Positions 6,273 through 64,000 are shown, counted from the stretch's first letter. The stretch is DNA of 64,000 bases from an uncultured Solirubrobacterales bacterium (GCA_963770885.1 CAVYRI010000002.1:29265-93264); one strand, 5' to 3'. Notes: generated by a model from the sequence alone, not told the origin. Numbers and translations are program-made.

Positions 6273-8801
6273 ATGGCATCTGACTCCAGGCAGCTGCCTG
6301 CGACCCAGAGCGTCGTCGTGATCGGCGCCGGAATCGTGGGCAACAGCGTTGCGTATCACCTCACGCAGTTGGGCGAAACCGAGATCACGCTGATCGACAA
6401 GGGGCCGCTGCCCAACCCCGGCGGCTCCACCGGCCACGCCTCGAACTTCATCTTTCCGGTCGACCACTCCAAGGAGATGACCTCACTGACGCTCGAGAGC
6501 ATGCGTCAGTACAGGGAGCTCGACGTGTTCCTCGAGTGCGGCGGGATCGAGGTCGCGCGGACGCAGGAGCGGATGCAAGAGCTGACACGGCGGATCGTGT
6601 CGGCCAAGACCTGGGGAATCGAGCCTGTGTCGCTGCTCACTCCGGCCGAGATCAAGGAGCTGGTGCCGTTCATCGACGAACAGCTGTTGCTGGGCGGCTT
6701 CTACACCCCGGGCGCAGGAGTGGTCGACTCGCTTCAGGCGGCGACGATCATGCGCGAGCGTGCGCAGGCCGCCGGCATGACCATCGCGGCCAACACCGAG
6801 GTGCTCGGGCTCGACGTCGAGCAGGGAACGATCCGTCGCGTGCGGACCGATCGCGGCGATATCGAGGCCGACCGGGTGGTAATCGCATGCGGCTGCTGGA
6901 GTCCGCGGATCGCGCGGATGGCGGGAGCGAACATACCGCTGACCCCTGCCGTGCACCAGATGATCGACATCGGGCCGGCGCCGCGGTTCGCCGATGCCAA
7001 GGCGCTGGTCGAATACCCGATCGTGCGCGACATGGACACCAACATGTACGAGCGCCAGGACGGCAGCGGGCTCGAGATCGGCTCCTACGCGCACCGGGCG
7101 ATCATGATGGACGCCGACGACATCCCCTCGATCGAGGAGTCGGCGCTGAGCCCGACCGAGCTGCCGTTCACGCAGGCCGACTTCGAGCTGCAGATGGAGC
7201 AGGCGCTCGAGCTGATGCCGGAGATCGTCGGCGACGAGACCGTCGGCCAGCGATACGCGATCAACGGCCTGCTGTCGGTGACGCTCGACGGAATGCCGCT
7301 GATCGGCGAGACGCCGGAGGTCAAGGGGCTGTGGTCGGCGGCGGCGATCTGGATCAAGGAGGGTCCGGGTGCCGGCAAGACGGTCGCCGAACTGATCGTG
7401 CGCGGCGAGTCGGAGATCGACGTCTATGAGTCCAACATCGCACGCGCGTACCCACACCAGAAGACCAAGGCGCACATCCAGGCCCGCGCCGGCGAGGGTT
7501 TCAACAAGATGTACGGGATCGTCCACCCGTCCGAGCAGTGGGAGTCAGACCGGCGGGTCAAGTTGCCGCCGTACTACGAGCGCGAGCAGGAGCTGGGCGC
7601 GGTCTTCTACGAGGCGGCAGGATGGGAGCGGCCCCAGTGGTATGAGTCAAACGCCCCGTTGCTCGAGGAGTACAGCGACCGGATCAACCGCCGGGAGTCA
7701 GAGTGGGAGGCTCGCTGGTGGTCACCGATCATCAACGCGGAGCATCTCGCGATGCGCGACCGGGCGGCGTACACCGACCTGACCGCATTCGCGATCTTCG
7801 ACATCACCGGACCGGGTGCCCTGGACGCGGTCCAGCGGATCGCGATGCGCCAGATGAACGTCGCCGTGGGCCGGGTCGTGTACACGCCGGTGCTGACGCC
7901 CAGCGGTGGCTTCAAGGCGGACCTGACGATCATGCGGATCGCCGATGACGTGTTCCGCGTCGTCACCGGTGGCGCATGGGGGATGTCTGACCTGAAGTGG
8001 TTCAAGGACCATCTGCCCGCCGACGGCAGCGCTCAGGTCCACGACCAGACGAACGCGTGGACGACGCTCGGGCTATGGGGTCCGCGGGCGCGGGACATCC
8101 TCTCGAGCGTGACCGGCGGCGACGTCTCGAACGACGGGTTCCCGTTCGCGACCTTCAAGGCGCTCGAGGTGGGCCCGCTGGAGGTGATCGCCTCACGGAT
8201 CTCCTACGTCGGTGATCTCGGCTGGGAGCTGTACGCGCCGATCGAGCAGGGCGCAAGGCTGTGGGACATCGTCGCCGAGGCGGGCCTCCCGCACGGTGCG
8301 GTGCCGATGGGGGCGGGCGTCTATGGCACAACCGGGCGGCTGGAGAAGTGCTACCGCGCCTACGGTGCCGAGCTCGAGGGCGAGTACAACGTGGTCGAGG
8401 CCGGGATGGCGTGGGGCAAGGTCAAGGACCAGGAGTTCATCGGCAAGCAGGCCCATGTCGGTCACCGCGAGGCCCCACCGGCGGCGAGCATGTGCACGCT
8501 GACTGTCGATGACCACAGCTCGAAGTCGGGCGTCAAGCGCTACATGCTCGGCGGCGAGCCGATCCTGACCGCGGGCGGTGACCCGATCACGGACGCCCAC
8601 GGGCGTCGCTCGTACGTGACCAGCGCCGGCGCCGGCCCGTCGGTGGGCAAGCACATCCTGATGAGCTACCTGCCTCCCGAGCACGCCAATGCGGGCGAGC
8701 AACTGCTGGTCCAGTACATGGGCGAGCAGTATCCGGTCACGGTCGCGGTCGCCGGCTCGACGCCGATCTTCGATCCCGACAACTCGCGGGTTCGCGCATG
8801 A
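6273..8801 (+). CDS. dimethylglycine/sarcosine dehydrogenase family flavoprotein (DAO + GcvT domains)
   Basis: GAGIVG FAD motif, GGSTGHAS (His at the covalent-flavin position of DMG oxidase), ISYVGDLGWELY and C-terminal GcvT folate-binding domains; 842 aa; followed by etf genes. Confidence 0.88.
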   Translation: MASDSRQLPATQSVVVIGAGIVGNSVAYHLTQLGETEITLIDKGPLPNPGGSTGHASNFIFPVDHSKEMTSLTLESMRQYRELDVFLECGGIEVARTQERMQELTRRIVSAKTWGIEPVSLLTPAEIKELVPFIDEQLLLGGFYTPGAGVVDSLQAATIMRERAQAAGMTIAANTEVLGLDVEQGTIRRVRTDRGDIEADRVVIACGCWSPRIARMAGANIPLTPAVHQMIDIGPAPRFADAKALVEYPIVRDMDTNMYERQDGSGLEIGSYAHRAIMMDADDIPSIEESALSPTELPFTQADFELQMEQALELMPEIVGDETVGQRYAINGLLSVTLDGMPLIGETPEVKGLWSAAAIWIKEGPGAGKTVAELIVRGESEIDVYESNIARAYPHQKTKAHIQARAGEGFNKMYGIVHPSEQWESDRRVKLPPYYEREQELGAVFYEAAGWERPQWYESNAPLLEEYSDRINRRESEWEARWWSPIINAEHLAMRDRAAYTDLTAFAIFDITGPGALDAVQRIAMRQMNVAVGRVVYTPVLTPSGGFKADLTIMRIADDVFRVVTGGAWGMSDLKWFKDHLPADGSAQVHDQTNAWTTLGLWGPRARDILSSVTGGDVSNDGFPFATFKALEVGPLEVIASRISYVGDLGWELYAPIEQGARLWDIVAEAGLPHGAVPMGAGVYGTTGRLEKCYRAYGAELEGEYNVVEAGMAWGKVKDQEFIGKQAHVGHREAPPAASMCTLTVDDHSSKSGVKRYMLGGEPILTAGGDPITDAHGRRSYVTSAGAGPSVGKHILMSYLPPEHANAGEQLLVQYMGEQYPVTVAVAGSTPIFDPDNSRVRA

Positions 8802-9553
8802 ACATCCTCGTCTGCGTCAAGCGCGTCCCGCTGACCGGCGGCAAGATCACGCTGACCGACGATGCGCAGGCGATCCAGACGCGCCACCTCGGGTTCACGA
8901 TCAGCCCGCACGAGGAATGCGGCGCCGAGGAGGCAGTGCGGCTGGTCGAGCAGCACGGAGGCTCGTCGACGGTCCTCACGCTCGGCCCCGCGGAGGCCGA
9001 GGAGCAGCTGCGCGACATGATGGCGATCGGGATCGACCGTGGCATTCACCTGATCAGCGACGGTGGCGAGTGGGACCCGCAGGCGACTGCGGGCGCGATC
9101 GTCGCGGCGATCAAGTCCGACAGCGAGAGCTACGACCTGATCCTGTTCGGCAACGAGTCGGCCGACGCGGGCAACTACCAGGTCGCGATCCGGGTCGCCC
9201 AAGCGCTCGGACTGCCGTGCGTCAACGGCGTCAAGGGGATCGCGGTGGACGGTCAGCAGCTGCGCTGCGAGCAGGAGGTCGCGGGCGGCCGGGACGTCTA
9301 TCTGATCCCGATGCCGGCCGTCGTGAGCGTCAAGGAAGGGCTCAACCTGCCGCGCTACCCGTCGGTACCGGGCCGGCTGCGCGCCAAGCGCAAGCCGCTT
9401 GACGTCTCGACGCCGCAGCGCCCCGAGAGCCGGCTGGAGATGGTGCGCCTCGTGCTGCCGCAGACCGCCAGCAAGGAGGCCGAGGTGCTCGGCACGGGCC
9501 CAGAGGCAGCGCCGGCGGTGGTCAGAGTGCTGCAGGAGATCGGGGTCGTGTGA
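8798..9553 (+). CDS. etfB: electron transfer flavoprotein subunit beta
   Basis: MNILVCVKRVP, MAIGIDRG, LILFGNESAD, NLPRYPS; ATGA overlap with upstream gene. Confidence 0.92.
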   Translation: MNILVCVKRVPLTGGKITLTDDAQAIQTRHLGFTISPHEECGAEEAVRLVEQHGGSSTVLTLGPAEAEEQLRDMMAIGIDRGIHLISDGGEWDPQATAGAIVAAIKSDSESYDLILFGNESADAGNYQVAIRVAQALGLPCVNGVKGIAVDGQQLRCEQEVAGGRDVYLIPMPAVVSVKEGLNLPRYPSVPGRLRAKRKPLDVSTPQRPESRLEMVRLVLPQTASKEAEVLGTGPEAAPAVVRVLQEIGVV

Positions 9554-10425
9554 TGGCGCTCGTGTTCGTCGAGAGCTCCGATGACGAGCTCTCCCAGCAG
9601 GCGGTCGCGCTGGCCCGAACGCTCGGTGACGGGGTCGACGCCGTCTCGATCGACTCAGCCGCTCCGTACGCGCCCGCCGCTTGGGCGCAGACGCTCGTCG
9701 AGCTGATCGAGCAGCGGTCGCCGACCGCCGTCGTCGGACCCGGAAGCGACCGTGGCAATGAGATCCTCGCCCACGTAGCCGCCAAGCTCGACCAGCCGAT
9801 GGCGGCCAACTGCATCTCGGTCACCACCGGCGACCCGGCGTCGGTGACCCGGGTGCGCTGGGGCGGCAGCCTGCTCGAGGAGGCGCGCCTGGACGGATCG
9901 CCACTGCTTCTGACCAGCGCGCCCCACGCTGTCGCGGCCGAGCCGATCGGCCAGCTGGAGACCATCGCCGTCGCGGGATCGGCGTCCGAGCTCGACAACG
10001 CAGCGCGGGTCGTCGAGCACCTGACCGCTGAGACCTCGGGCGTGTCATTGGCCGACGCCGACGTGGTCGTCTCGGGCGGCCGCGGGGTCGGGTCGGCGGA
10101 GGGCTTCTCGGTGATCGAGGAACTGGCGGCGCTGCTCGGCGGCGCGGTCGGCTGCTCACGCGCGGTCACCAGCGCCGGCTGGCGACCCCACACCGATCAG
10201 GTCGGGCAGACGGGCACCAAGATCTCGCCCGAGATCTACATCGCATGTGGGATCAGCGGCGCGACCCAGCACATGGCCGGCTGCAAGGGCGCCAAACGCC
10301 TGCTGGCGATCAACCCCGACGGCGAGGCGTCGATCTTCGCCAGCGCCGACTACGCCGTGATCGGGGATCTGCACGAGGTGGTGCCGGCGATCTCCGCCGA
10401 GATCAGGAAGGCGAGAGACTCATAG
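9553..10425 (+). CDS. etfA: electron transfer flavoprotein subunit alpha
   Basis: VVVSGGRGVG, GCSRAV, QVGQTG, YIACGISGATQHMAG, AINPD FAD-binding motifs. Confidence 0.93.
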   Translation: MALVFVESSDDELSQQAVALARTLGDGVDAVSIDSAAPYAPAAWAQTLVELIEQRSPTAVVGPGSDRGNEILAHVAAKLDQPMAANCISVTTGDPASVTRVRWGGSLLEEARLDGSPLLLTSAPHAVAAEPIGQLETIAVAGSASELDNAARVVEHLTAETSGVSLADADVVVSGGRGVGSAEGFSVIEELAALLGGAVGCSRAVTSAGWRPHTDQVGQTGTKISPEIYIACGISGATQHMAGCKGAKRLLAINPDGEASIFASADYAVIGDLHEVVPAISAEIRKARDS

Positions 10426-10430: not shown

Positions 10431-12425
10431 GTGATCGCCGCGATCGTGCTCGCCGCGTTGATCGTGGTGAGCGCGACGTTGTTCGCGATTCGTGTCGGCT
10501 TCCTACTCGGACTGGTCCGGGCGGCCGCGCCGGTGAATCGCTCCGGCGATCTCGAGCGGCGGGTCAGCCACGAGGCGACGATCGTCCTCGGACAGCGCAA
10601 GCTGCTCCAGCGACTCGGCCCCGGCCTGATCCACGCGTTCATCTTCTGGGGCTTCCTGGTGCTGGTTCCGACGATCCTGATCGCGCTGATCGGAGTCGTA
10701 GACAAGCACTCGACGCTCCCGTGGCTCGGCCATCAGGGCTGGTTCGCGCTGCTGGCCGACGTGTTCGCGACGCTTGTGCTGGTCGGCTGCGCGGGGGCGG
10801 TCTGGATCCGCAAGGTCCAGCGCCCCGGGCGCTTTGAGGGCAGCCATCTGGGCGAGGCCGACCTGATCCTCGCCCTGATCGCGACGATCGCGACGACGCT
10901 GCTGCTGTGGCAGGCGTGCCGGATCGCGCTCGGACTGAACGAGTGGCCGGCCGGTTGGGCCCCGGTGTCGGACCTGCTCTCGAAGCTGTTCGCCGACAAC
11001 GGATTGACACGCGTGCTCGAGCGGGTGTTCGTGTGGCTGCACGTGTGCACGATCCTGTTCTTCCTCGCCTACCTGCCGCGCTCCAAGCACCTGCACATCT
11101 TCAGCGCCGCGTTCAACGTCTGGTTCGGCCGCACGGGTCCAGGCGGCCGGCTGGAGACGTTGCGCTTCGACGATCCCGATGTGCCCGAGGAGGAGATCCG
11201 GTTCGGCGCCGGGACGGCCGCCGATCTGACCTGGAAGCAGGTTCTGGACACGTTCTCGTGCACCGAGTGCGGCCGCTGCCAGGACGCGTGCCCGGCGTTC
11301 GCAACCGGCAAGCTGCTGTCACCGAAGCTGGTGATCATGGGGCTGCGCGACCAGCTGTTCGCCGACGGCGGCACGATCGTGGCGGCCGCCGGGCACGAGG
11401 GGGAGGCGCCCGAGCTCGCGAGCTTGGTCGGCGATGCCGTACCTGAGGAGTCTGTCTGGGACTGCGTCACCTGCGGGGCGTGTGTGCAGGCCTGCCCGGT
11501 GTCGATCGAGCACGTCGACCACATCGTCGATCTGCGCCGCCACCTGGTGATGGTCGAGTCGAGCTTTCCCGCGGAGGCCGAGCCGATGCTGCGCGACGTC
11601 GAGCGGGCCGGCAACCCATGGGGCAAGGCACAGTCCGAGCGGGCCGATTGGGCCGCCGACCTGGGAGTCCGGGTTCTGGAGCCGGGCGACCCGGCGCCCG
11701 AGTACCTGTACTGGGTCGGATGCGCGACCTCATTTGATGAGCGCGCGCGCAGAACCGGCGAGGCGACCGCGAAGCTGCTGCGCAAGGCGGGCGTCGACTT
11801 CGCGATCCTCGGTCCGCGGGAGGCCTGCACCGGTGACCCGGCCCGGAGGATCGGCAACGAGTATGTCTTTCAGGCGTACGCCGAGCAGAACGTCCAGACG
11901 CTCAACGAAGCGGGGGTGACGAAGATCATCACCGGCTGTCCGCACTGCTTCAACACGCTCGGTAACGAATACCCAGACTTCGGCGGCCACTACGAGGTGA
12001 TCCATCATTCAGAGCTGCTGGCGCGGCTGGTGGCCGACGGGCGCCTGGCGCCCAAGCGCGACCAGGGGCTGAGCATCACCTACCACGACTCCTGCTACCT
12101 GGCGCGCCACAATGACGTGCTCGCTCCGCCGCGGGATCTCGTGGCCGCGGTCGGCGAGCCAGTGGAGATGGAGCGCAGCGGCAAGTCGACGTTCTGCTGT
12201 GGAGCGGGCGGCGCTCACATGTGGATGGAGGAGCGCGCCAAGCCGATCAACGAGAACCGGGTCCGCGAGGCGGCCGGGACGGGTGCGCAGACGCTCGCGG
12301 TTGCGTGCCCGTTCTGCACCGTGATGCTCGATGACGGGGTCCAGAGCGCAGGCGAGGAGCTGCGTGTGGTCGACGTCGCGACGCTGCTCGACGAGGCGAC
12401 GTCAGGGGACGTGGACGGCGGCTAG
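10431..12425 (+). CDS. membrane-bound Fe-S oxidoreductase, FadF/EtfD (ETF:menaquinone oxidoreductase) type
   Basis: N-terminal TM helices with conserved His (HAFIFWGF, HVC, SKHLHI), two CxxCxxCxxxCP motifs (CTECGRCQDACP, CVTCGACVQACP), two CCG domains (GCPHC, CCGAGG); start uncertain (GTG 10431). Confidence 0.85.
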   Translation: MIAAIVLAALIVVSATLFAIRVGFLLGLVRAAAPVNRSGDLERRVSHEATIVLGQRKLLQRLGPGLIHAFIFWGFLVLVPTILIALIGVVDKHSTLPWLGHQGWFALLADVFATLVLVGCAGAVWIRKVQRPGRFEGSHLGEADLILALIATIATTLLLWQACRIALGLNEWPAGWAPVSDLLSKLFADNGLTRVLERVFVWLHVCTILFFLAYLPRSKHLHIFSAAFNVWFGRTGPGGRLETLRFDDPDVPEEEIRFGAGTAADLTWKQVLDTFSCTECGRCQDACPAFATGKLLSPKLVIMGLRDQLFADGGTIVAAAGHEGEAPELASLVGDAVPEESVWDCVTCGACVQACPVSIEHVDHIVDLRRHLVMVESSFPAEAEPMLRDVERAGNPWGKAQSERADWAADLGVRVLEPGDPAPEYLYWVGCATSFDERARRTGEATAKLLRKAGVDFAILGPREACTGDPARRIGNEYVFQAYAEQNVQTLNEAGVTKIITGCPHCFNTLGNEYPDFGGHYEVIHHSELLARLVADGRLAPKRDQGLSITYHDSCYLARHNDVLAPPRDLVAAVGEPVEMERSGKSTFCCGAGGAHMWMEERAKPINENRVREAAGTGAQTLAVACPFCTVMLDDGVQSAGEELRVVDVATLLDEATSGDVDGG

Positions 12426-12989
12426 CAACGCCGCGTAGGACCGAACCAGCGCTGCTCGCTCGTCGTCGACCAGCGGGCTCTCCAGGTCACAGCCCTCCTT
12501 GACCCAGCGATCGGAGAGCCGCATCGCCAGCGCCCGCTGCTCGGCCGCCAGCCGGACGGTTGGCTCGGGCACCCCGTAGGCGTAGGCGTAAAGCTTGGCC
12601 AGCGCGGCGATCAGCGCCTGCTCGTCGAGATCGGAGCCGTGGCGCTGGTGCTCGCGGTGGATCCGCCACCAGTCGACCTCGAGCTCGGCCGCCACCTTGG
12701 GGTCATATCCCTCACCGTGCTCGCGTTTGACCAGCGCGTAGAAGCGCTCCATCGCACCCCGCGCGCCGTCGGGGTCGTTGTCGGTAGGCGGCGCCCAGAG
12801 CTGATTTGCACGCAGCACGAGCCACGCCCCCTGAAAGGTCGCCGGCCAGGGAAGCCCGAAGGCCTGGCGGGTCACGAGCACGGCGGCGCGCAGGAACTTC
12901 AGCCACTCGCGGCGGTAGTAGGAGACCCATGTGACGGTCTCGAGCCGGCCCACCCGGTTTGGGTCAAACGATCGGTGCGGCGCGCTCAC
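12402..12989 (-). CDS. conserved hypothetical protein, last gene of the corrinoid operon
   Basis: 195 aa, GTG start overlapping upstream stop, helical soluble sequence with normal high-GC codon use. Confidence 0.7.
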   Translation of the reverse strand: MSAPHRSFDPNRVGRLETVTWVSYYRREWLKFLRAAVLVTRQAFGLPWPATFQGAWLVLRANQLWAPPTDNDPDGARGAMERFYALVKREHGEGYDPKVAAELEVDWWRIHREHQRHGSDLDEQALIAALAKLYAYAYGVPEPTVRLAAEQRALAMRLSDRWVKEGCDLESPLVDDERAALVRSYAALLAAVHVP

Positions 12990-13547
12990 GGGGTGAGCAG
13001 CTCCTCGAGCGCACGCTCGAGGCCCGCGGTGCCGACCTGGCGCACCTCGAGCGGGAGCCCGAGCCGCTCGGCGGCCGAGACCGCGCAGGCCCGCGTGGCC
13101 GCTGTCGGGCGCTGGGCGAGCCAGACGACGCGCGTGTAGTTGCGAAAGTACTCGTCGCGCAGCTCGGGGTAACGGTCGAGTCCCAGCTCGCGGACCACGG
13201 TGTGCTCGAACGTTCGGGCGAGGAAGTCGGTCAGAAAGTACGTCCCCGGCTCCTGGGCCAGCGCCTCGGCGACCTCATCGCGCGCGAACACGTCGTAGCA
13301 GTGATCGCCGGCCAGCCGGGGCAGCCCGAGCTCGTCGAGCGCGCCGTGGGTTCCGCAGTCGGCGTACGCGAGCGCGACCGCGTCGTGGCGCGCGACGCAG
13401 CTCTGCGACCGCGGGCGCGATCCGCTCGGGGTGGTTGTGCAACATCGCGTCGACCGGCAGTACCTCGACGTCCCAGCCGCGCCGCCGGGCGATCGCGCGG
13501 ACGTCAAACGCCAGCGCCCCGCATCCGATGACTGCGGCCGAGGTCAC
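12986..13547 (-). pseudogene. DUF1638 domain protein, +1 frameshift near 13397
   Basis: Frame 1 VIGCGALA...MLHNHPERI; frame 2 AYADCGTHGALD...HCYDVFA...YFLTDFL...YFRNYTRVVWL, the DUF1638 pattern. Confidence 0.8.
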
Positions 13548-19069: not shown

Positions 19070-19123
19070 GCCGGTTATATTAGGGCCCGACACCGCTGCG
19101 TCAAGCCACAATCGGAGGAAGCC

Positions 19124-20566: not shown

Positions 20567-20573
20567 GCCCGGG

Positions 20574-21281: not shown

Positions 21282-21347
21282 GGGCGCATCATATTCCGCT
21301 CGCGCGTGTTTAAAGGAACCATCGTGGACCGGTATAAGAACACGCCC

Positions 21348-24499: not shown

Positions 24500-24584
24500 C
24501 CCGAGGCAGCCAGATGCACCGTCCCGACGGGGTCCAGAAACGCTTGGCGCACGATGAACAGAATGTTAGACTCCTAGACGATGA

Positions 24585-54119: not shown

Positions 54120-55057
54120 TCGGCCGTTCGCAACCGGATCCGCGGGTTCAGCAGCGAGAAGCCGATGTCGGCCACCAGCGTCACAACCATGTACACGATC
54201 CCGATCGTCAGCACGCACGCCTCGAGCATCGGGATGTCGTGCTGGTTTGCGGCGTTGTACGTGAGCATCCCGATGCCGTTGTAACGAAACAGCGTCTCGA
54301 CGACGACCAGGCCGCCGATCAGGTAGCCCGTCTGGGTCGCGATCACGGTGATCGTCGGCAGCAGCGAGTTGCGCAGCACGTGGCGACGGATCACGACCCC
54401 GCGCGGCAGGCCCTTCAGGGTCGCCGTCCGCGCGTAGTCTGACTCGAGCGCCTCGACCGTTCCAGCACGGGCCATACGGGCGATGTACCCGAAGAGGACC
54501 AATACGAGCGGGATCACCGGCAGGATCAAGTACTTCAGCTGGGTGAAGAAGCCCGACCCCGCCGGAGCGGTGGCCGTCACAGGCAACCACCCGAGCGCGA
54601 TCGAGAACACGACGAGCAGCACGATCCCCGAGACGAACTCAGGCACCGTCAGGGCCGACTGGCCGACGATGCTGATCGTCCGATCCAGCGGCTTGCCGAA
54701 GTTGAGCGCCGAGACGATGCCGCCGATCAGCCCCAGCGGCACGACGATCACGAACGCGAACACCGCCAGCTTCAGCGAACGGCCCAGCGCGCTGGTCAGG
54801 ATCGGCCCGATCGGCGCCTGGTACTGGGTCGAGGTGCCGGGGAAGTGGGTGATCCAGTTCCAGTACTGCGTCAACAGCGGCTTGTCGACGCCAAGTGTGT
54901 GATCGAGCGCGCGGACCGCGCTGGGCGCGGCGAGCGGCCCGAGCACCGAGCGCCCCGGATCGCTCGGTAGGACCTGGCCGAGGACGAACACGATCACGCT
55001 CAGCAGCCACAGCGTTACCAGCGCCAGGCCGAGCCGCTTGAGGATGAAGCCCGTCAT
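54116..55057 (-). CDS. peptide/nickel ABC permease (DppB-like)
   Basis: LKRLGLAL, YARTATLKGL, HVLRNSLLP, VVVETLF.YNGIG, DIPMLE, LNPRIR. Confidence 0.92.
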   Translation of the reverse strand: MTGFILKRLGLALVTLWLLSVIVFVLGQVLPSDPGRSVLGPLAAPSAVRALDHTLGVDKPLLTQYWNWITHFPGTSTQYQAPIGPILTSALGRSLKLAVFAFVIVVPLGLIGGIVSALNFGKPLDRTISIVGQSALTVPEFVSGIVLLVVFSIALGWLPVTATAPAGSGFFTQLKYLILPVIPLVLVLFGYIARMARAGTVEALESDYARTATLKGLPRGVVIRRHVLRNSLLPTITVIATQTGYLIGGLVVVETLFRYNGIGMLTYNAANQHDIPMLEACVLTIGIVYMVVTLVADIGFSLLNPRIRLRTAE

Positions 55058-55073
55058 CGGCCGCCCGCCGGCA

Positions 55074-56768: not shown

Positions 56769-57663
56769 GACTTGACTTCCTTTCGGTGGCAATCGATCCT
56801 GCGCCGGCCGCTGCCGCGGAATCGACGCTTACATCACTAATTCGATCAAATTTGGTGGGGGACGGGTCTTTGGCGGGGGGCAGGTCAGCCAGGGGGGCGA
56901 GTGATCGCGCTGCGCTGATTAGGTCAGGGAGCATTTCAGCCTTTCGCTCGGACGTCATCCGCCCGCTGGGGATGCACAACGTGAGCGCGGCGGCGACGCG
57001 GCCCACCGGCCCGACCCGCACCGCGACGCAATGGAGTCCGAGCGCGGTCTCGTCGATGTTCTCGCCGTAGCCACGTTCGCGCGTCCGCTCGAGGATCAGG
57101 TGGAGCTCGTCCAGCCCGCCGAGCCGCCGCCCGGTCGGGGTCACCAGCTCCCTGCCGGCGAACATCGCGTTGACCCGTTCGCGCGGCAGGTCGGCGAGCA
57201 GGACGCGGCCCGCCGCGGATGCGAACGCCGGCAACCGGCTCCCGACCGGGCTCACGAGCCGCACCGGGTGGGTCGTCTCGACCTTGGCCAAGAACAGGCT
57301 GTCGAGGCCGTCGAGCACCACCAGGCAGGTGGTCTCGTTGTGGCGCGCGACAAGCCGTCCGGCGACCGAGTGAAAGCCGTTGGTCAGCGCCGCCGCCGGC
57401 GCAGCTCGCGCGAGCCGAGCCGTGCGGGGGCCGAGCGCGAGCGTCGACGTGCCGGCGTCGCGCGCGATCCAGCCGCGCTCGAGCATCATTGAGCAGACCC
57501 GGTGCAAGGTGCTCTTGGGGGCGCCGGTCTCCCGTGAGAGCTCGGCCAGGGTCAGCGTGCCGCAGCCGTCAAGCGCGTCGAGCACGTCAAGCACCGTCGC
57601 GACGCCGGCTGAGCGAGCGCGCGGCCTTCGTGGCGCGTGGGGGCGCACCGCTGAACCTGCCAA
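56761..57663 (-). CDS. IclR family transcriptional regulator
   Basis: LDVLDAL..TLAELSRETGAPKSTLHR, ETTCLVVL, VGSRLPAFASAAGRVLLA, DETALGLHCVAV; both ends uncertain. Confidence 0.85.
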   Translation of the reverse strand: MAGSAVRPHAPRRPRARSAGVATVLDVLDALDGCGTLTLAELSRETGAPKSTLHRVCSMMLERGWIARDAGTSTLALGPRTARLARAAPAAALTNGFHSVAGRLVARHNETTCLVVLDGLDSLFLAKVETTHPVRLVSPVGSRLPAFASAAGRVLLADLPRERVNAMFAGRELVTPTGRRLGGLDELHLILERTRERGYGENIDETALGLHCVAVRVGPVGRVAAALTLCIPSGRMTSERKAEMLPDLISAARSLAPLADLPPAKDPSPTKFDRISDVSVDSAAAAGAGSIATERKSSHG

Positions 57664-57765: not shown

Positions 57766-59004
57766 CTAACGGTCAGGGCTCGGGCTGGCCGCGCGCGCCG
57801 CGGCAGCCCCCGCCAGCACCTCGGCGACTACCCGGGTCGCGGCGATGATCTCGTCGATGTCGGCGCCCTCCTGGGGGGTGTGGGACTCGCCGCCGTGGAG
57901 CGGGACGAAGACCAGCAGCGTCGCGATCTGCGCCGCCAGGTGCTGGGCGTCGTGACCGGAGCCCGACCAGGTCTTGATCGCGCCGATGCCGAGCGACCGT
58001 GCGGCGTCGACGGCGGCATCGGCGAGCCCTGGGTGCAGCGCCACCGGATCCCCGGTGCGGACCAGCTCGACGTCGACGGTCACCCCCCGGCGTTGCGCGA
58101 TCGCAGCCGCATCACCGCGGATCTCGGCCTCGAGTCGATCCAGCGACGGTCCCGAGATCGCTCGCGCGTCGATCGTCAGCCTGGCGGTACCCGGAATCAC
58201 GCTCACCGCCCCAGGCGTGATTTCGATCTCGCCTACGGTCGCAACCGTCTCTGGGTCCTCGGCGCTGGCGGCGGCCTCGACCGCGAGCACGAGCTCGGCG
58301 GCGGCGGCCAGGGCGTCATGGCGCTCCTCCATCGCCACCTCGCCGGCGTGGCCGGACCTGCCGGCGATCAGCCCCTGCAGCCGACGGGGCGCGGCGACCT
58401 TGGTGACCACGCCGAGCTCGCGCAGTGACCGCCGCTGGGCGACGTGGATCTCGGCGTGCGCGATCACGCGCCCGAGAGCCGGCTGGACGCGCGGCAGCTC
58501 GCCGACGGCCTGCAGATAGGTGACCCGCGCCTGCGCGGCGCTCACCCCGGCCGCGTCTCGGAAACGCTCGAGCTCACGCTCTGAGAGGGTGCCGACCAGC
58601 AGCCGCGAGCCAACGGTGCCGGCCGCGAAGCGCGGTGCCTCCTCGGCCGCGCAGACGAGCAGGCCCGCCCGGGCGCCAGCAGCGAGCCGTTCGCCGAGGT
58701 CATTGACGAGCTCGAGCCCGAGCACGGTCCCGAGCGCACCGTCGTAGCGGCCACCGTCGGGAACGGTGTCGACGTGTGAGCCGGCCGTGACGACCGGGCC
58801 GCTCCAGCCCGCGGGCAGCGCCCAGAGGTTCCCGAACGGGTCGATCCCGGGCTCCAGCCCGGCCTCGCGCGCCCAACCGGCGACGAGCAGCATCGCCTCC
58901 GCCTCGGCGGTCGAGAAGGCAGGGCGGTCGGCCCCGCCGGCAAGACCCCTGGCGATCTGCCACAGCTGCTCCAGGCGCGCGGCGATCCGCTCACGGTCAG
59001 GCAA
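57766..59004 (-). CDS. M20-family N-carbamoyl-L-amino acid amidohydrolase (allantoate amidohydrolase-like)
   Basis: DPFGNL, GSHVDTVPDGGRYDGALG, AAEE, GRSGHAG, DALAAAAE, PGAVSVIPG, SGSGHDAQ; TTG start overlapping upstream stop. Confidence 0.88.
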   Translation of the reverse strand: MPDRERIAARLEQLWQIARGLAGGADRPAFSTAEAEAMLLVAGWAREAGLEPGIDPFGNLWALPAGWSGPVVTAGSHVDTVPDGGRYDGALGTVLGLELVNDLGERLAAGARAGLLVCAAEEAPRFAAGTVGSRLLVGTLSERELERFRDAAGVSAAQARVTYLQAVGELPRVQPALGRVIAHAEIHVAQRRSLRELGVVTKVAAPRRLQGLIAGRSGHAGEVAMEERHDALAAAAELVLAVEAAASAEDPETVATVGEIEITPGAVSVIPGTARLTIDARAISGPSLDRLEAEIRGDAAAIAQRRGVTVDVELVRTGDPVALHPGLADAAVDAARSLGIGAIKTWSGSGHDAQHLAAQIATLLVFVPLHGGESHTPQEGADIDEIIAATRVVAEVLAGAAAARAASPSPDR

Positions 59005-60067
59005 GCGCGAACTCCGCCAACGGCTTGCCGAGCATCGCCTCGACCTCGGGGTAGACGCTCGGCTCCTTGACGCCGTCACCGAGCGGGACATTGGCCTTGG
59101 GCACGTGCAGGACGGCGACCTCGTCGCCCTCGCGGAGGTTGGCGATCGAGATGATCCTTCCGGTCTGCACCGACAGCGTCGCCAGGACGTCGGGGAAGGT
59201 GGCCAAGCGCTCGCCGCCCGACTCGGCGGTCAGGTACTCGTTGACGAATCCCAGCTCCAATTCATCGACGACGATCGTGCCGACGTCAAACGCGTTCTCG
59301 GTTCTCAGCTCGCGGCTGCGGACACGACCCTCCGCGATCACCGCGCCGCCGAGATGGTCGGCGGTCGTCTCGATCATCCGTCTCGGGCCGTCGGCCTCGA
59401 CGGCGAGGATCGCCTCGCCGAGCGCCAGCGCGAAGCTGATCGCGCCGACCGCCGCATGGCGGGCGACGAACGACGCCGGGAGCGGGTTGCGCGCGCACGA
59501 GATGAAGCCACCGGATTGCTCGGCGGCGGTGCGGAGCACGTTGGCGGTGTGGCGAACCGTGCCCCGGGTGACCACCTCGAGGTAGCGGTTCTGCGCCCGG
59601 TTGCCGCCTGCGACGGCCTGGACAGTCTGGTGGTCGTCATCGGCGGCGAGCCCAAACGAGCCCATCTTGCCGGTCGGGTGGGCGCGCCCGTCACCGGCGG
59701 CGTCGATCACCAGCGTGCCGAGCACCGCGGACGCGACCCAGCCGTTGCAGGTCGTCGAGGAACCGTTCTGGGCGGTGACGGTGCCGACGATCGGCGCGGG
59801 CACCGCCTCGATCAGCAACTGGAGCGCGCGGACATAGTCGCCCGGTCGCATCTCCCAGCCGACGGCGGCCGGCGCGCCGATCGCGCTCACCGTCGCGAGC
59901 ATCGCCTCGGGGTCGACCTCGCCCAGTGAGGCGAGCCGGGGCGTCCCGTACTGGACGGCGGTCGTGCCGACGAGCATTCCATGGTCGACCCAGCCGCCGC
60001 CACCGGCGGCGAGCACCGAGCCGCCCGCGACGGCTGCGTGGACGGCAGCCAGATCCAGGTCTCTCAC
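58997..60067 (-). CDS. DUF917 family protein (candidate thiohydantoin desulfhydrase)
   Basis: GGSVLAAGGGG, VSAIGAP, AQNG, VIDAAGDGRAHP..KMG, NEY, TFPDVL; 356 aa. Confidence 0.85.
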   Translation of the reverse strand: MRDLDLAAVHAAVAGGSVLAAGGGGWVDHGMLVGTTAVQYGTPRLASLGEVDPEAMLATVSAIGAPAAVGWEMRPGDYVRALQLLIEAVPAPIVGTVTAQNGSSTTCNGWVASAVLGTLVIDAAGDGRAHPTGKMGSFGLAADDDHQTVQAVAGGNRAQNRYLEVVTRGTVRHTANVLRTAAEQSGGFISCARNPLPASFVARHAAVGAISFALALGEAILAVEADGPRRMIETTADHLGGAVIAEGRVRSRELRTENAFDVGTIVVDELELGFVNEYLTAESGGERLATFPDVLATLSVQTGRIISIANLREGDEVAVLHVPKANVPLGDGVKEPSVYPEVEAMLGKPLAEFALA

Positions 60068-61710
60068 GGCTCACCTCCAATCGTCGGCAATCCAAGGCCA
60101 AACTCCCGCGCACCGGCCTGCGCTTGCTCGAGGCCCGCGTCGGCGTGGCGCAGAACGCCAAGCGCGGTGTCGACGTTCAGGGCGCCGGCGAGACGCAGCC
60201 GCGCGTCCTCGGTGCCGGTGGCGACCACGGTCATGCCGGCGCTCTGCGAGTAACCGGCGTAGCCACCGCCGCCGGCGTGAAGGGCGACGAGGTCCGCGCC
60301 GGCGGCCGTCGTCAGCAGCGCGTTGAGCAACGGCCAGTCGCTGATCGGGTCAGAGCCGTCGGGCATCGCCTCGGTGATTATGTTGGGGTGGGTCATCGCG
60401 CCGCCGTCCATGTGATCGCGGGTGAACGCGACCGGCGCCTGCAGCCGTCCGTCGGCGACCGCCTCGTTGACCGCGAGCGCCAGCCGCGCGCGCTCGCCGT
60501 GTCCGAGCCAGGCGATCCGCGCCGGCAGCCCCTGGCGGCTGACGTGTTCGCGCGCCAGCGCGATCCAGTTGACGATCCGCGGCACCCCGTCGAACAGCTC
60601 CAGGCAGAGATCATCGACGAGCTCGAGATCGCCGTCCTCACCCGACAGGCAGATCCAGCGAAAGGGCCCGATCCCGCGGCAGAACAGGGGCCTGATGTAG
60701 CGCGCGGTGAAGATGTCGATGTCGAGCGCCTCGGGAAGTCCGCCACCCGCCGCCTGAGGCCGGATGTTATTGCCGTAATCGAACGTGATCGCGCCCCGCT
60801 CACGCAGCTCCAGCATCGAGCGGACGTGAGCGACCAGCGTCGCCAGCGCGAGCGCCTCGAGCTTGCCCGGATCGCCGAGCCGCAGCGCGGCCACCTCGTC
60901 CATCGCGAGCCCCGCCGGCAGGTAGCCGCTGCGCAGGTCATGCGCGGCGGTCAGGTCGGTGACGACGTCGGGCACGACGCCGCGCCCGACCAGTCCCTTC
61001 AGCAGCTCGGCCGCGTTGACGGCGACTCCGACGGCCAGCGGGCGGCGATCGGCGCGGGCCGCGAGTGCGGCGTCGAGCGCCTCGTCGATCACGTCGGCGG
61101 CGAGATCGAGCTTGCCCTCGTCGAGCCGGCGGCGCACCTTGTCGGGATCGGCGTCGGCGACCAGGCAGACGCCGCCGAGCATCCGGGCGATCGCGACCGG
61201 CTGCGCGGCGCCCATCCCGCCGAGGCCTGCGGTTGTGACCAGACGCCCGCTCAGCGAGCCGCCAAAGTGCTCGCGTGCGACCTCGGCGAACGTCTCGTAG
61301 GTCCCCTGGAGCACTCCCTGGGCGCCGATGTACTGCCAGCACCCGGCGGTCAGCCCGCCCCACGCGATCAGGTTGCGCCGCTCGAGCTCGTAGAAGATCT
61401 CCGGCGTTGCCCAGCGGCCGACGAGGTTGCCGTTGGCCAGCAGGACAGCTGGTGAGCGCGGGCCGGTGGGCAGCACCGCGATCGGCTTGCCCGACTGGAC
61501 GATCAGCGTCTCGCCGTCGCCGAGCACGAGCAGCGCGGCGACGATCGCGTCGAGGCTGTCTCGGTCACGGGCCACCTTGGCGTGGGCGGCGTAGACGACC
61601 AACCGCTCGGGATCCTCGGCGATCGCGAGGTTGTTCTCCAGCAGTCGCAGGATCGCCTCCTGGCGCCAGCCGCGGCAGCGCAGAGAGGGTGCCCGAGGGG
61701 CCTCAGGCAC
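60064..61710 (-). CDS. divergent urocanate hydratase homologue (candidate thiourocanate hydratase)
   Basis: [90 protein letters not shown]; start uncertain (61710 or 61728). Confidence 0.88.
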   Translation of the reverse strand: MPEAPRAPSLRCRGWRQEAILRLLENNLAIAEDPERLVVYAAHAKVARDRDSLDAIVAALLVLGDGETLIVQSGKPIAVLPTGPRSPAVLLANGNLVGRWATPEIFYELERRNLIAWGGLTAGCWQYIGAQGVLQGTYETFAEVAREHFGGSLSGRLVTTAGLGGMGAAQPVAIARMLGGVCLVADADPDKVRRRLDEGKLDLAADVIDEALDAALAARADRRPLAVGVAVNAAELLKGLVGRGVVPDVVTDLTAAHDLRSGYLPAGLAMDEVAALRLGDPGKLEALALATLVAHVRSMLELRERGAITFDYGNNIRPQAAGGGLPEALDIDIFTARYIRPLFCRGIGPFRWICLSGEDGDLELVDDLCLELFDGVPRIVNWIALAREHVSRQGLPARIAWLGHGERARLALAVNEAVADGRLQAPVAFTRDHMDGGAMTHPNIITEAMPDGSDPISDWPLLNALLTTAAGADLVALHAGGGGYAGYSQSAGMTVVATGTEDARLRLAGALNVDTALGVLRHADAGLEQAQAGAREFGLGLPTIGGEP

Positions 61711-63088
61711 CGGCTGCCGCGGGCTCACGTGCCGTCGATCCGCGCTCACCCGGGGCGGCGCCGTGCTCGCGGGGAAGGACTGCGGGTACAAATCGGCCGT
61801 GGCCCGGAGCCGAGCCGACGCTGGTGCCGTCCCACACCTGCACCCCGCGCGAGAAGGCGGCGATCACCCGGCCCCGCAGGCGCCGGCCGGCGTACGGGCT
61901 CCAGCCGGCAGCCGTCACCAGCCGCGCCGGATCGATCTCCCACTCGAGCTCGGGATCGAGCACGAGGACGTCGGCGTCGGCGCCGGGCAGCAGGTTGCCC
62001 TTGCGGGGCCAGAGCCCGAACCGGCGGGCGGGCGCCTCGCTGACCAGCCGCACCAGTGCATGCGCGCCGAGCGCGTCGTGGACGAGCGGAACGATCAGCT
62101 CGACGCCCGGCGCGCCCGATGCGAGCGCGAAGATGTCGGGCCCGTGCTTGCGCTCCACCGGCCAGCCGACGTGGTCTGACGAGATCAGATCGAGGCCATC
62201 GACCGGCAGCGGTGCGGCGCGCAGCGGCGGGTTGATCTTCGCCTCGCCTCCCTGGCGCACCAGCTCGGTCTCGTCGAGCAGCAGGTAGTGCGGGCAGGTC
62301 TCTGCGGTCACGTCGACACCGTCGCGGCGGGCCGCGATCACCAGCTTCACCGCGCGGGGCGTCGAGACGTGGCAGATGTGGATGCGGACCCCGGTCGCGC
62401 GCGCCAACTCGAGCACCCGCGCGACGGCCTCGTGCTCGGCGACCGGCGGTCGCGAGCGAGCATGGGCGAGCGGATCGGCGCCACCGGTGGCGGCCTGCTC
62501 GGCCGCGATCCCGGCGCGGACTATCTCGTCGTTCTCGGCGTGGATGCCGGCCAGGCCGCCGGCCGCCGCGATCTGCTGGAACGCTGCCAGTAACTGCCCG
62601 TCGGGGATCCGGGGGAAGCGCTGCGGGTGGGTCTCGAAGGTCGAGAGCTTGAACGCGGCAGCCCCGGCAGCGACGAGCGCCGCGACCTCGTCGATCGCGC
62701 CGCGGGGCGGGACCGTCGCCCACAGACCGACATCGACGTGCGCCTCGCGCTCGACGTCGGCGACCTTGGCCGCGAAGGCGTCCACGGTGTCGATCGGACC
62801 GGCGGCGTCGTAGGGCATGTCGACGATCGTCGTCACGCCGCCCGCGGCGGCTGCGCTCGTGCAGCGCTCGATTCCCTCGCCGTCATAGCTGCGGGTGTGG
62901 ACGTGGACATCCACCGCGCCGGGGAGCAGCAGCGCGTCGCCGTAATCGATGCCACCGGGCAGTGGCTCGCCAACGTGCTCGATACGACCGTCGCGGATTG
63001 ACAGGCCAGCCCGTCTCGCGGCCCCGTTGAGGCCGAGAACCCTTCCCGAAACGTTCTCGATGGCTGAGATAGAGGTAGGGTATAACAC
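61703..63088 (-). CDS. cyclic amidohydrolase (allantoinase/hydantoinase/dihydroorotase family)
   Basis: PGAVDVHVH, AAAAGGVTTIVDMP, FKLS, HAEN, HICHVST, ETCPHYL, KINPPLR, SSDH, GADADVL; start uncertain. Confidence 0.88.
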   Translation of the reverse strand: MLYPTSISAIENVSGRVLGLNGAARRAGLSIRDGRIEHVGEPLPGGIDYGDALLLPGAVDVHVHTRSYDGEGIERCTSAAAAGGVTTIVDMPYDAAGPIDTVDAFAAKVADVEREAHVDVGLWATVPPRGAIDEVAALVAAGAAAFKLSTFETHPQRFPRIPDGQLLAAFQQIAAAGGLAGIHAENDEIVRAGIAAEQAATGGADPLAHARSRPPVAEHEAVARVLELARATGVRIHICHVSTPRAVKLVIAARRDGVDVTAETCPHYLLLDETELVRQGGEAKINPPLRAAPLPVDGLDLISSDHVGWPVERKHGPDIFALASGAPGVELIVPLVHDALGAHALVRLVSEAPARRFGLWPRKGNLLPGADADVLVLDPELEWEIDPARLVTAAGWSPYAGRRLRGRVIAAFSRGVQVWDGTSVGSAPGHGRFVPAVLPREHGAAPGERGSTAREPAAAGA

Positions 63089-63097
63089 CCATAGCTC

Positions 63098-64000
63098 ATG
63101 ACCATCGTCTCAGCTAACGAGAAGATTCTCCTCAGTGGCGATGGTCTGACCGTGGACGACGTGCTGGCGATCGCACGCGGCCGCGCGCGGGTCGAGCTCG
63201 ACCCGGCTGCGCTCGTCCGCGTTCGCGCGGCGCGCGAGGTCGTCGACCGGGTGCTGGCCAGCGGTGAGTCGGTGTACGGGCTCAACACTGGTCTCGGATC
63301 GCTGTCGCGCCACCACATCGCGCTCGACGAGATCGGCGCGTTCTCGTTCGCGACGGTCGCCGATCAGGTCTCCTCCTACGGCCGCCCGCTGCCGAGCGAC
63401 GTCGTGCGCGCGATGATGGTCTCGCGGGTCAACGGCATGCTGAAGGCCGGAGTGGGGGTGACGCGTGAGCTGATCGAGCTGCTGGTCGCATTGCTGAACG
63501 CCGACGTGCACCCGATCGTGCGGATGCTTGGATCGGTCGGTCAGGGTGACCTGTCGGAGATGGCCGACATCGGCAAGGTCCTGATCGGCCGCGGCTGGGC
63601 CGAGTACGAGAACGAGACCGTGCCCGGTGACGAGGCGCTGCGCCGCGCCGGGATCGAGCCGATCGCCTTGGGCCCCAAGGAGGCGCTCGGGTTGATCAGC
63701 GCCAACGGGGTGACGATCGGGCGCGGCTCGCTCGTCCTCGTCGACGCCGCCGACCTGATCGAGAGCATGCAGATCGCTGCGGCGCTCAGCTTCGAGGCGT
63801 TCGCGGCGAACCTCTCGATCATTCATCCGGCTGCCGATCGCGCCCGTCCCCACTCCGGTCAGCAGACCGCGAGCGCGCGGCTGCGCGAGCTGCTGGAGGA
63901 CTCCGAGCTGTGGCGGCCCGGTGCGGCCCGAAACCTCCAGGACCCGCTCTCGATCCGCTGCGTGCCGCAGACCCACGGCGCCGTCTATGACGCGCTCTCG
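63098..64000 (+). CDS. aromatic amino acid lyase family protein lacking the ASG/MIO motif (lyase 4; candidate ergothioneine/hercynine TMA-lyase), 3'-truncated by the window edge
   Basis: Own translation from ATG 63098 (missing from the ORF track, no stop before the edge): LSGDGLTVDDV, VYGLNTGLG, GSVGQGDL, LGPKEAL, ISANG, LQDPLSIRCVPQTHG; TATAAC at 63081-63086. Confidence 0.87.
   Translation, partial: MTIVSANEKILLSGDGLTVDDVLAIARGRARVELDPAALVRVRAAREVVDRVLASGESVYGLNTGLGSLSRHHIALDEIGAFSFATVADQVSSYGRPLPSDVVRAMMVSRVNGMLKAGVGVTRELIELLVALLNADVHPIVRMLGSVGQGDLSEMADIGKVLIGRGWAEYENETVPGDEALRRAGIEPIALGPKEALGLISANGVTIGRGSLVLVDAADLIESMQIAAALSFEAFAANLSIIHPAADRARPHSGQQTASARLRELLEDSELWRPGAARNLQDPLSIRCVPQTHGAVYDALS

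Follow-up and report, generated by a model that had tools for sequence, protein, structure and literature searches.

Catabolic modules of the window

The DNA analysed here is a stretch of 64,000 nucleotides (the window, G000:C2:29265-93264) from a metagenome-assembled genome (MAG) of a soil Solirubrobacteraceae bacterium (Thermoleophilia), whose assembly comprises 5.77 Mb in 12 contigs and is 92.8% complete. The window has a G+C content of ~70%; genes were called via third-position G+C and annotated with Pfam and NCBIfam. Downstream of 6.2 kb, it carries a dimethylglycine dehydrogenase (DMGDH)-type operon with a corrinoid methyltransferase cluster, a set of lyase and hut genes, and an ergothioneine cluster that extends ~4.3 kb past the window end. 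We consider it likely that these 58 kb are an accessory catabolic region in which independently regulated modules for different quaternary amines lie side by side, and that trimethylamine (TMA) is not taken by the MttB-family enzyme encoded there. Each module is of an already described kind. The analysis establishes which genes are present, their families and active-site residues, and their synteny and co-occurrence, and all substrates and fluxes are predictions. An earlier note on this DNA had proposed an island that links TMA-lyases to corrinoid capture of methyl groups. The lyases, the MttB/corrinoid/methyltransferase/MetVF set, the GcvT-fold N-demethylase with its respiratory chain and the formaldehyde-handling candidates that it listed are all present at the scale it gave.

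The first module (6.2-20.6 kb) consists of the following genes:

6273-8801, plus strand: dimethylglycine/sarcosine-dehydrogenase-like flavoenzyme (DMGDH type; Pfam DAO, FAO_M, GCV_T and GCV_T_C)
8798-9553, plus strand: EtfB (Pfam ETF)
9550-10425, plus strand: EtfA (Pfam ETF_alpha)
~10431-12425, plus strand: EtfD-like membrane Fe-S oxidoreductase (Pfam Fer4, 4Fe-4S dicluster, and two CCG domains)
12986-13507, minus strand: DUF1638 protein (Pfam)
13544-~15350, minus strand: RACo/RamA corrinoid reductive activase (Pfam; split over two reading frames near 14600)
15434-16507, minus strand: MtgD-like pterin-binding methyltransferase (MT2; Pfam)
16272-17213, minus strand: MetF, a methylenetetrahydrofolate reductase (MTHFR; Pfam)
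17200-17589, minus strand: MetV-like PF12225 protein (Pfam)
17586-18251, minus strand: MtgC-like B12-binding corrinoid protein (Pfam)
18248-19000, minus strand: IclR regulator, divergent from mtgB (Pfam)
19052-20566, plus strand: MtgB-type MttB-family methyltransferase (PF06253; likely start TTG near 19124)

The methyltransferase is the sole PF06253 protein of the genome (625 bits) and is of the MtgB type, without pyrrolysine (Pyl), a predicted glycine-betaine:corrinoid methyltransferase. Compared with proteins of known structure, it scored 452 bits against PDB 4YYC, 425 and 420 against D. hafniense MtgB (2QNE and 9YCE) and 128 against a true MttB (7XCL). Its open reading frame (ORF) lacks an in-frame stop (amber/Pyl codon), and its score of 272 bits lies outside the Pyl-MttB equivalog TIGR02369, for which the cut-off is 525. 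In the glycine-betaine site of MtgB, Y97 and F356 provide cation-pi contacts and R312 and H348 hold the carboxylate, a motif that its authors present as a minimum set and not as proof of specificity (PMC13080624). The equivalents of Y97, R312 and H348 are kept in the window protein, with Gly at the F356 position as in 4YYC and a Trp nearby; since the carboxylate-binding Arg and His are retained, a betaine is favoured over TMA as substrate.

Genes for the corrinoid protein, MT2, RACo and DUF1638 all lie with mtgB inside 8 kb. Aerobic glycine-betaine demethylation has been described for a gene set made up of MtgB, MtgC, MtgD, a MetF paralogue, RamA and DUF1638, often with genes for the later demethylation steps nearby (PMC12478193), and the scores, the conserved residues and a gene set matching that of Mausz et al. 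2025 assign the first module to this known kind. No MtgE-type homocysteine-binding gene was seen in or near the corrinoid cluster. For the DMGDH gene, 6273 was chosen as the start, since alignments with relatives begin at residue 9-31 of the ORF that opens at 6216 and an operator occupies 6255-6266. Orthologues with 76-89% identity were found 10-27 kb from mtgB in 12 of the 12 congeners in which this could be read, and the mtgB-DMGDH unit is conserved, also in genomes without the lyases described below. The EtfD-like protein has ~5 predicted hydrophobic or transmembrane helices within its N-terminal 280 residues; together with EtfB and EtfA, we infer that it is the electron outlet of the DMGDH-like enzyme, with transfer to menaquinone. 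MetF (16272-17213) is the only MTHFR homologue that tblastn detected in the genome and may have a second role in making methionine; a MetH-like gene, in which pterin-binding and B12-binding domains occur together, is located at C5:875.6-877.1 kb. Directly behind mtgB, positions 20208-23213 encode a protein of 1001 aa that ends in an arylsulfotransferase (ASST) beta-propeller domain.

The second module (35.7-46.5 kb) combines Hut-type genes with homologues of histidine ammonia-lyase (HAL1 to HAL3), the designation MIO-less denoting the absence of the Ala-Ser-Gly triad that forms the methylidene-imidazolone (MIO) group:

35688-37223, minus strand: HAL1, MIO-less lyase (GSLGTGDL; PF00221 and residue comparison)
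37280-38794, plus strand: HAL2, MIO-less lyase (GSVGAADL; Lys384 position occupied by Lys, His83 equivalent absent)
38791-39786, plus strand: ornithine-cyclodeaminase/mu-crystallin (OCD) family protein (Pfam)
39812-41457, plus strand: hutU (tblastn; full length once two 1-nt assembly insertions are read through)
41460-42716, plus strand: hutI (NCBIfam score 321.5, cut-off 298)
42713-43831, plus strand: hutF (NCBIfam score 415, cut-off 362)
43828-45219, plus strand: HAL3, degenerate lyase homologue (PF00221)
45223-46518, plus strand: amidohydrolase (Pfam)

With HAL4 of the third module, the window encodes four PF00221 proteins, and the Ala-Ser-Gly triad is found in none of them, their loops reading GTGD, GAAD, GAGE and GQGD from HAL1 to HAL4. 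The two remaining PF00221 lyases of the genome, on contigs C1 and C5, have the canonical GASGDL, and no canonical hutH occurs within the window. MIO-less members of PF00221 have been defined as trimethylammonia-lyases, in which a basic residue at the position of Lys384 in the T. denticola ergothionase denotes an ergothionase and a neutral one a lyase for sulfur-free betaines (Bertsova preprints, bioRxiv 10.1101/2025.08.13.670108 and 10.64898/2026.04.22.720169). The four window homologues are MIO-less and are predicted to be of the TMA-releasing type, in agreement with the earlier note. In pairwise alignments with PDB proteins, the Lys384 position is occupied by Tyr in HAL1, Lys in HAL2, Met in HAL3 and Arg in HAL4; the catalytic Tyr is present in all four, HAL2 and HAL4 have no His83 equivalent, and HAL3 lacks most substrate residues. 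HAL1 is identical to the canonical HutH of this genome at all substrate positions examined (Tyr, His, Tyr, Tyr, Glu), with G-T-G replacing G-A-S-G, and is most likely a hercynine (histidine betaine) trimethylammonia-lyase yielding urocanate, for which it is the best candidate. Orthologues with 81-87% identity are present in G011, G016 and G085.

Both hutI and hutF are present in one copy each in the genome. HAL3 and the amidohydrolase were not found in the congener G085, and neither was an AbiEi/DUF559-type gene (46474-47457) that lies between the Hut-type module and the Fae/alcohol dehydrogenase (ADH) genes; the latter gene may mark the junction of separately acquired blocks. A homologue 60% identical to the OCD protein stands beside ergothioneine/Hut clusters in four Thermoleophilaceae loci (L057, L058, L060 and L071). 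In these four, the ergothioneine cluster is joined directly to the OCD gene, HAL2/HAL3-like genes, a second urocanase, hutI and hutF, an arrangement indicating that the association of OCD, lyase and Hut genes recurs beyond this genus.

The third module (51-64 kb) follows a group of genes that includes the formaldehyde candidates, given here in the first line:

47405-51137, minus strand: HIBADH-like, enolase-superfamily (MR/MLE), Fae-like and class-III-like Zn-ADH genes (Pfam, NCBIfam)
51145-57663, minus strand: Opp/Dpp-type ABC transporter (fused ATPase, two permeases, SBP5) and IclR regulator (Pfam)
57766-59091, minus strand: ErtE-like carbamoylase (NCBIfam ErtE model 246, cut-off 520)
58997-60067, minus strand: thiohydantoin-desulfurase-like protein (NCBIfam 427.5, cut-off 440)
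60064-61791, minus strand: thiourocanate-hydratase-like protein (NCBIfam 746, cut-off 930)
61703-63088, minus strand: ErtD-like hydantoinase (NCBIfam 411, cut-off 600)
63098-64000, continuing to G000:C2:93936, plus strand: HAL4, ergothionase-type MIO-less lyase (GSVGQGDL)

For the hydratase, the desulfurase and ErtD, the top NCBIfam match is the ergothioneine model, and the ErtE gene has generic allantoate-amidohydrolase/carbamoylase models as its top matches. The top PDB match of HAL4 is the ergothionase 6S7J (E 1.2e-73), whose GEGD loop its GQGD loop resembles, and the signature of the HAL4 clade (Tyr, GSVGQGDL, Leu, Arg, Glu) is fixed in 66 orthologues. We fetched 80 loci around desulfurase homologues from Solirubrobacteraceae, Thermoleophilaceae, Gaiellales, Rubrobacteraceae and Acidimicrobiales MAGs. 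The order lyase / ErtD-hydratase-desulfurase-ErtE is kept in most of them, with all five genes in ~60. Downstream of the HAL4-type lyase, an IclR gene was found in 60 and an APC permease in 26 of the 80, and both also stand behind HAL4 here. The scores below cut-off point to a divergent actinobacterial lineage, in which the ergothioneine route probably works as known. The imidazole skeleton could thus reach glutamate, as the earlier note had proposed, by encoded routes via hutU/I/F and via the five-step ergothioneine set.

The ABC transporter and IclR genes at 51145-57663 belong to the ergothioneine module: an SBP5 or ABC-ATPase homologue lies behind ErtE in most of the 80 loci, and the IclR gene of the 51-57.7 kb region recurs in 7. 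Zn-ADH and Fae genes, mostly with MR/MLE, stand behind an ABC transporter near ergothioneine clusters in at least six loci (L030, L032, L035, L044, L055 and L084). The Fae-like protein matches PF08714 with 84.7 bits and its gene keeps company with Zn-ADH, MR/MLE and HIBADH genes; the Fae-like and Zn-ADH genes are candidates for formaldehyde handling.

The fate of trimethylamine

A TMA dehydrogenase (TMADH) orthologue of 730 aa is encoded on another contig of the same genome, at G000:C1:626605-628797. It aligns end to end with the Methylophilus enzyme (PDB 1DJN/2TMD) at 917 bits, compared with 532 for histamine dehydrogenase, and it keeps Cys30 (the site of 6-S-cysteinyl-FMN), Tyr60, Ser74, Trp105, both further Trp residues of the aromatic bowl and the motifs DIAEWG and SRWEIGG. 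Tyr60, Ser74 and Trp105 reportedly distinguish TMA-type from dimethylamine (DMA)-type enzymes, according to Basran et al. An APC permease gene precedes the TMADH gene, and genes for EtfB, EtfA and an EtfD-like protein follow it; the other strand carries a GcvT-like gene. Judged by these residues and neighbours, the C1 enzyme is most likely a classical TMADH with its own electron-transferring flavoprotein (ETF) and the most likely sink for TMA released by the lyases.

The earlier note had observed that the window holds neither a TMA monooxygenase nor a TMA dehydrogenase, and had therefore proposed that a Pyl-free MttB acts on TMA. The observation is true for the window, but it misleads, as the TMADH orthologue lies elsewhere; with TMADH and its ETF present, the gap behind this proposal is closed for this genome. 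Other sinks did not hold up. The best candidate for a TMA monooxygenase, an FMO-like gene at C3:429.7 kb, scored 72-105 bits against a cut-off of 675 (NF058570) and lies in an unrelated context, and across the whole genome the best match to the TMA N-oxide (TMAO) demethylase Tdm reached 285 bits against a cut-off of 1100. A TMADH paralogue at C3:246989 was rejected as a DMA dehydrogenase, having Glu, Glu and Val at the positions of Tyr60, Ser74 and Trp105 and no bowl Trp. In the surroundings of the TMADH gene (C1:616000-636000), the GcvT-like protein matches the C-terminal half of the TMAO demethylase model with 286 bits.

Among 200 sampled genomes of the genus, 121 carry mtgB, 33 the ergothioneine cluster and 39 a TMADH orthologue; the mtgB and DMGDH counts of 17/24, 18/24 and 121/200 include the unpublished genome G024, on which no claim rests. 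TMADH orthologues with at least 84% identity were present in 16 of the 33 congeners with an ergothioneine cluster vs 23 of the 167 without one (odds ratio (OR) 5.9, P 3e-5). A family-wide draw of 150 genomes gave TMADH in 2 of the 3 with the cluster and in 2 of the 147 without it. Relatives without TMADH probably excrete TMA. A limited literature search returned nothing relevant on thiohydantoin desulfurase, ErtD or hercynine in combination with TMA dehydrogenase.

Linkage, regulation and competing explanations

In the genus sample, mtgB was present in 29 of the 33 genomes with an ergothioneine cluster vs 92 of the 167 without (OR 5.9, P 3e-4), and all 16 assemblies with both on one contig have mtgB and the desulfurase gene 36-76 kb apart (median 47 kb). 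The modular betaine-catabolic island of the earlier note is therefore a real one in physical terms, and its clustering is non-random: the region beside the glycine-betaine module is a variable spot that collects methylated-amine modules. Nine congeners that lack the ergothioneine cluster have TMADH at a distance of 50-120 kb from mtgB, in G341 TMADH is 17 kb away from the desulfurase, and a single 75-kb region of G042, from another Thermoleophilia lineage, holds two MttB types, DMGDH, the ergothioneine cluster and TMADH. HAL1-like and HAL2-like genes occur on other contigs than mtgB, or 270 kb from it, in G007, G014, G015 and G019. Outside the genus, mtgB and the cluster are on separate contigs in G103 (genus g32), and neither mtgB nor TMADH was found in G064. 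An MttB-family gene lies within 10 kb of an ergothioneine cluster in 5 of the 80 loci, from at least three lineages. Co-occurrence counts such as these do not demonstrate biochemical coupling.

A palindromic element, CTGATATATCAG, is present in the window only at 6255-6266, 24585-24596 and 28157-28170 (six half-site matches, where 0.65 would be expected) and is absent from 35-64 kb. These sites precede the DMGDH operon, a pair of GntR and PALP-dehydratase genes, and a pair of aldehyde dehydrogenase and APC-permease genes; the regulator of the second pair is:

24514-25335, plus strand: GntR/FCD regulator (Pfam)

The three copies suggest a predicted GntR regulon for later steps of betaine breakdown. 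The short intergenic region between the IclR gene and mtgB contains the inverted repeat GGAACtgttGTTCC. Besides the one GntR regulator, there are several separate IclR genes, three of them beside mtgB, the ABC transporter and HAL4. No operator common to the mtgB and lyase promoters was found, the 10-mers matching only as GC-rich chance. The modules look independently regulated, as far as promoter and regulator sequences can tell.

From these elements the following scheme can be proposed. MtgB would move a methyl group of glycine betaine to the corrinoid protein MtgC, from which MtgD would pass it on to tetrahydrofolate (THF); MetVF would oxidise the methyl-THF, while RamA and DUF1638 would hold the corrinoid reduced. 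The DMGDH-like enzyme would take the next methyl group, its electrons leaving via its own EtfBA and the membrane EtfD-like protein. HAL1 would split hercynine into TMA and urocanate, which hutU/hutI/hutF would carry towards glutamate. The third module would import ergothioneine, from which the Arg-variant ergothionase would release TMA, and the hydratase, desulfurase, hydantoinase and carbamoylase steps would lead to glutamate. TMA would go to the TMADH orthologue on C1, with its own ETF/EtfD genes, so that the modules would converge solely in common pools (C1-THF, ETF/quinone and glutamate).

Several findings weigh against this scheme. A DMA dehydrogenase was not identified in the genome, and 17 of the 33 congeners with an ergothioneine cluster show no TMADH orthologue, 15 of these 17 having mtgB. 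All four downstream ergothioneine enzymes score under the NCBIfam trusted cut-offs, the thiolate-binding position of HAL4 is occupied by Arg instead of Lys and HAL4 has no counterpart of His83 of the T. denticola ergothionase, and the Gly at the F356 position makes the pocket of the window MtgB not identical to that of the characterised enzyme. The enrichment of mtgB with the ergothioneine cluster, invariably 36-76 kb away where contiguity allows, and two Acidimicrobiales MAGs in which the cluster abuts the whole module (MtgB-MtgC-MtgD...DMGDH), with TMADH not found, could reflect a functional tie. Common descent and differences in genome size and completeness confound all these co-occurrence tests.

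Such a tie would be expected if the corrinoid system captured the N-methyl groups of histidine betaines, either from TMA released by the lyases or from hercynine and ergothioneine before elimination, and the island formed one pathway. Beyond the linkage just described, the MttB-family genes close to ergothioneine clusters in several lineages speak for it, and the residues Y97, R312 and H348 would be compatible with any alpha-N-trimethyl amino acid carboxylate. The enzyme itself points elsewhere: without a Pyl codon, at 272 bits where the TMA-methyltransferase model asks for 525 and at 128 bits to 7XCL, and with the carboxylate-binding Arg and His retained, it is unlikely to take free TMA. The window mtgB is, moreover, orthologous to the DMGDH-linked clade, whereas the MttB genes of lyase operons form a separate Gln/Gln clade that is absent here; 92 sampled congeners have mtgB but no ergothioneine cluster, and this genome has a TMADH. 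We regard this explanation as very unlikely indeed, and the two ideas of the earlier note that depend on it find no support: against a Pyl-free MttB acting on TMA or hercynine speak the MtgB-type scores and residues, the DMGDH linkage and the TMADH elsewhere, and against the link from TMA-lyases to corrinoid capture the mtgB-DMGDH unit of lyase-free genomes, the separate regulators and the enrichment of TMADH with the ergothioneine cluster. The co-occurrence analysis that the note had suggested did yield an association and same-contig closeness, but also the 92 congeners with mtgB alone; unlinked modules and independent regulation, which it had named as evidence against itself, were each found in part, the modules being separable in relatives and independently regulated in appearance.

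In L067, L070 and L082, the MttB gene beside the ergothioneine cluster is 62-64% identical to the window MtgB, and in G042 and G045 this type coexists with a 74% copy adjoining DMGDH. The tree splits the DMGDH-linked clade, which includes the window protein, from the second clade at 100/100. The former keeps Tyr97 and His348, and the latter has Gln at both positions, with Arg312 kept. Its operons (L067:12260-18290, L082:12415-20069 and L070:1-2702) contain SoxD/SoxA/SoxB-like genes (L067 and L082; SoxBDAG-like) and/or a further MIO-less lyase (L070 and L082) that has His83 and a Val at the Lys384 position. The clade is absent from the window genome, whose single PF06253 gene belongs to the DMGDH-linked clade. 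The Gln/Gln system is a candidate for a betaine other than glycine betaine, and if a corrinoid route for histidine betaines exists, its clearest candidates are in this clade, outside the window. A broader version, in which MttB systems beside MIO-less lyases or ergothioneine clusters constitute a second histidine-betaine route that delivers methyl groups of hercynine- or ergothioneine-type betaines to THF, and in which the one MtgB here serves both glycine and histidine betaines, seems to us very unlikely.

A neighbourhood without metabolic meaning, produced by common descent at a hot spot for accessory genes, would explain the patchiness of the ergothioneine cluster (33/200 congeners, 3/150 family-wide), the HAL1/HAL2-like genes apart from mtgB in four genomes, the different contigs in G103, the AbiEi/DUF559 gene between modules, and those congeners that have a TMADH cluster, not an ergothioneine cluster, 50-120 kb from mtgB. 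Yet the contents are biased to methylated-amine catabolism (the glycine-betaine module, TMA-lyases and TMADH), and the pairing arose in other gene order in Acidimicrobiales and in G042, which argues for selected co-location, for instance through co-transfer or a shared C1/ETF demand; we judge chance neighbourhood to be rather unlikely. There is also a slim chance that the corrinoid system chiefly does methionine and C1 housekeeping, as with the split methionine synthase of Ruegeria that shares MtgC/MtgD with glycine-betaine demethylation. The cluster MetF, as the only MTHFR detected in the genome, would fit such a role; the MetH-like gene on C5, the lack of any MtgE-type gene seen in the cluster, and a corrinoid cluster that was not found in ~40% of the sampled congeners do not, and an MtgB gene with an adjacent DMGDH operon makes sense for betaine use only. 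Side-by-side modules, with TMADH as the outlet for TMA, are accordingly the explanation we prefer.

Assembly quality, wider meaning and known counterparts

Three apparent frameshifts affect the region, two in hutU and one in RACo. The hutU shifts, at ~40720 (two runs) and ~41163, are 1-nt assembly insertions, given that near-identical short-read soil contigs have one base fewer at each site; at ~41163, the short-read contig is otherwise without differences across 229 nt. These contigs rule out hutU as a pseudogene. RACo reads in a single frame in the congener G085, so that the shift near 14600 is probably an assembly indel as well, and the view of RACo as a pseudogene is probably wrong. Scattered stops and frameshifts were common in conserved genes of many relatives' assemblies, which points to a trait of these MAGs and not to gene decay, and broken genes in such MAGs need read support before they are called pseudogenes. 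An Rfam scan of the window returned no riboswitch or RNA family, cobalamin riboswitches included. Upstream of the region discussed, at 3553-4649, genes for an Ada/MGMT-type methyltransferase and a PF09859-family 2-oxoglutarate oxygenase are DNA alkylation repair genes, unrelated to the island.

Among the betaines of fungi and actinobacteria, ergothioneine and hercynine are abundant, and their fate in soil is poorly charted. Here, glycine betaine, a hercynine-type betaine and ergothioneine each have a complete encoded route in an uncultured Solirubrobacteraceae genus that is very rich in species, and many members add a TMADH; the island and a classical TMADH together suggest that turnover in soil need not release TMA. 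As markers for metagenomes, the Arg-variant ergothionase clade, the HutH look-alike with G-T-G for G-A-S-G, and the Tyr/His vs Gln/Gln pockets of MttB proteins could be used. A Pyl-free MttB acting on TMA was a tempting idea that is left unsupported, and the Gln/Gln clade is the place where real coupling between MttB and lyases might be tested.

The first module has the components of the MtgBCD system of Ruegeria pomeroyi (Mausz et al. 2025, PMC12478193) and of D. hafniense MtgB (PDB 2QNE/9YCE; PMC13080624). Its pyrrolysine-free MT1 belongs to the MttB family, the corrinoid protein binds B12 and the MT2 pterin, and a MetF paralogue, RamA/RACo and DUF1638 complete the set, with DMGDH for a later demethylation step encoded nearby and Y97, R312 and H348 kept. 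It differs in its actinobacterial (Thermoleophilia) host, in its single 8-kb cluster that includes a MetV-like gene and an IclR gene, in the replacement of F356 by Gly with a Trp four residues past the His, as in PDB 4YYC, and in that MtgE is not seen nearby.

HAL1 shares the absence of MIO with Swoo_3913 of Shewanella woodyi and SO_3299/SO_3057 of S. oneidensis, and its Tyr at the Lys384 position, combined with kept histidine-binding residues, is the feature from which the Shewanella authors predict that a lyase turns a sulfur-free betaine into urocanate. The Shewanella lyases reside in the periplasm and supply flavocytochrome reductases with urocanate-type acceptors for anaerobic respiration (10.1101/2025.08.13.670108, 10.64898/2026.04.22.720169), whereas the window lyases adjoin hutU/I/F for assimilation. 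All five enzyme families of the known ergothioneine catabolism (NF058530, NF058529, NF058538/9, NF058540; 6S7J) are present here, as a divergent gene pair/operon with its own partners: an Opp/Dpp-type ABC transporter, two IclR regulators and an APC permease. Like 6S7J, HAL4 has no MIO, a shortened G-x-G-D loop, the catalytic Tyr, the carboxylate-binding Gln/Arg/Asn and the Glu; its clade, across the 66 orthologues, differs from the T. denticola ergothionase in having Arg for Lys384 and Val/Gln for the His83 equivalent. Work on ergothioneine catabolism has reportedly come from Burkholderia sp. HME13 and from the Seebeck laboratory. The TMADH on C1 resembles that of Methylophilus methylotrophus W3A1 (2TMD/1DJN) in its Tyr60/Trp264/Trp355 bowl, in Cys30, Ser74 and Trp105, and in the ETF genes directly downstream; its setting is its own, on a different contig from the island, with genes for an EtfD-like membrane protein and a GcvT-like protein behind it.

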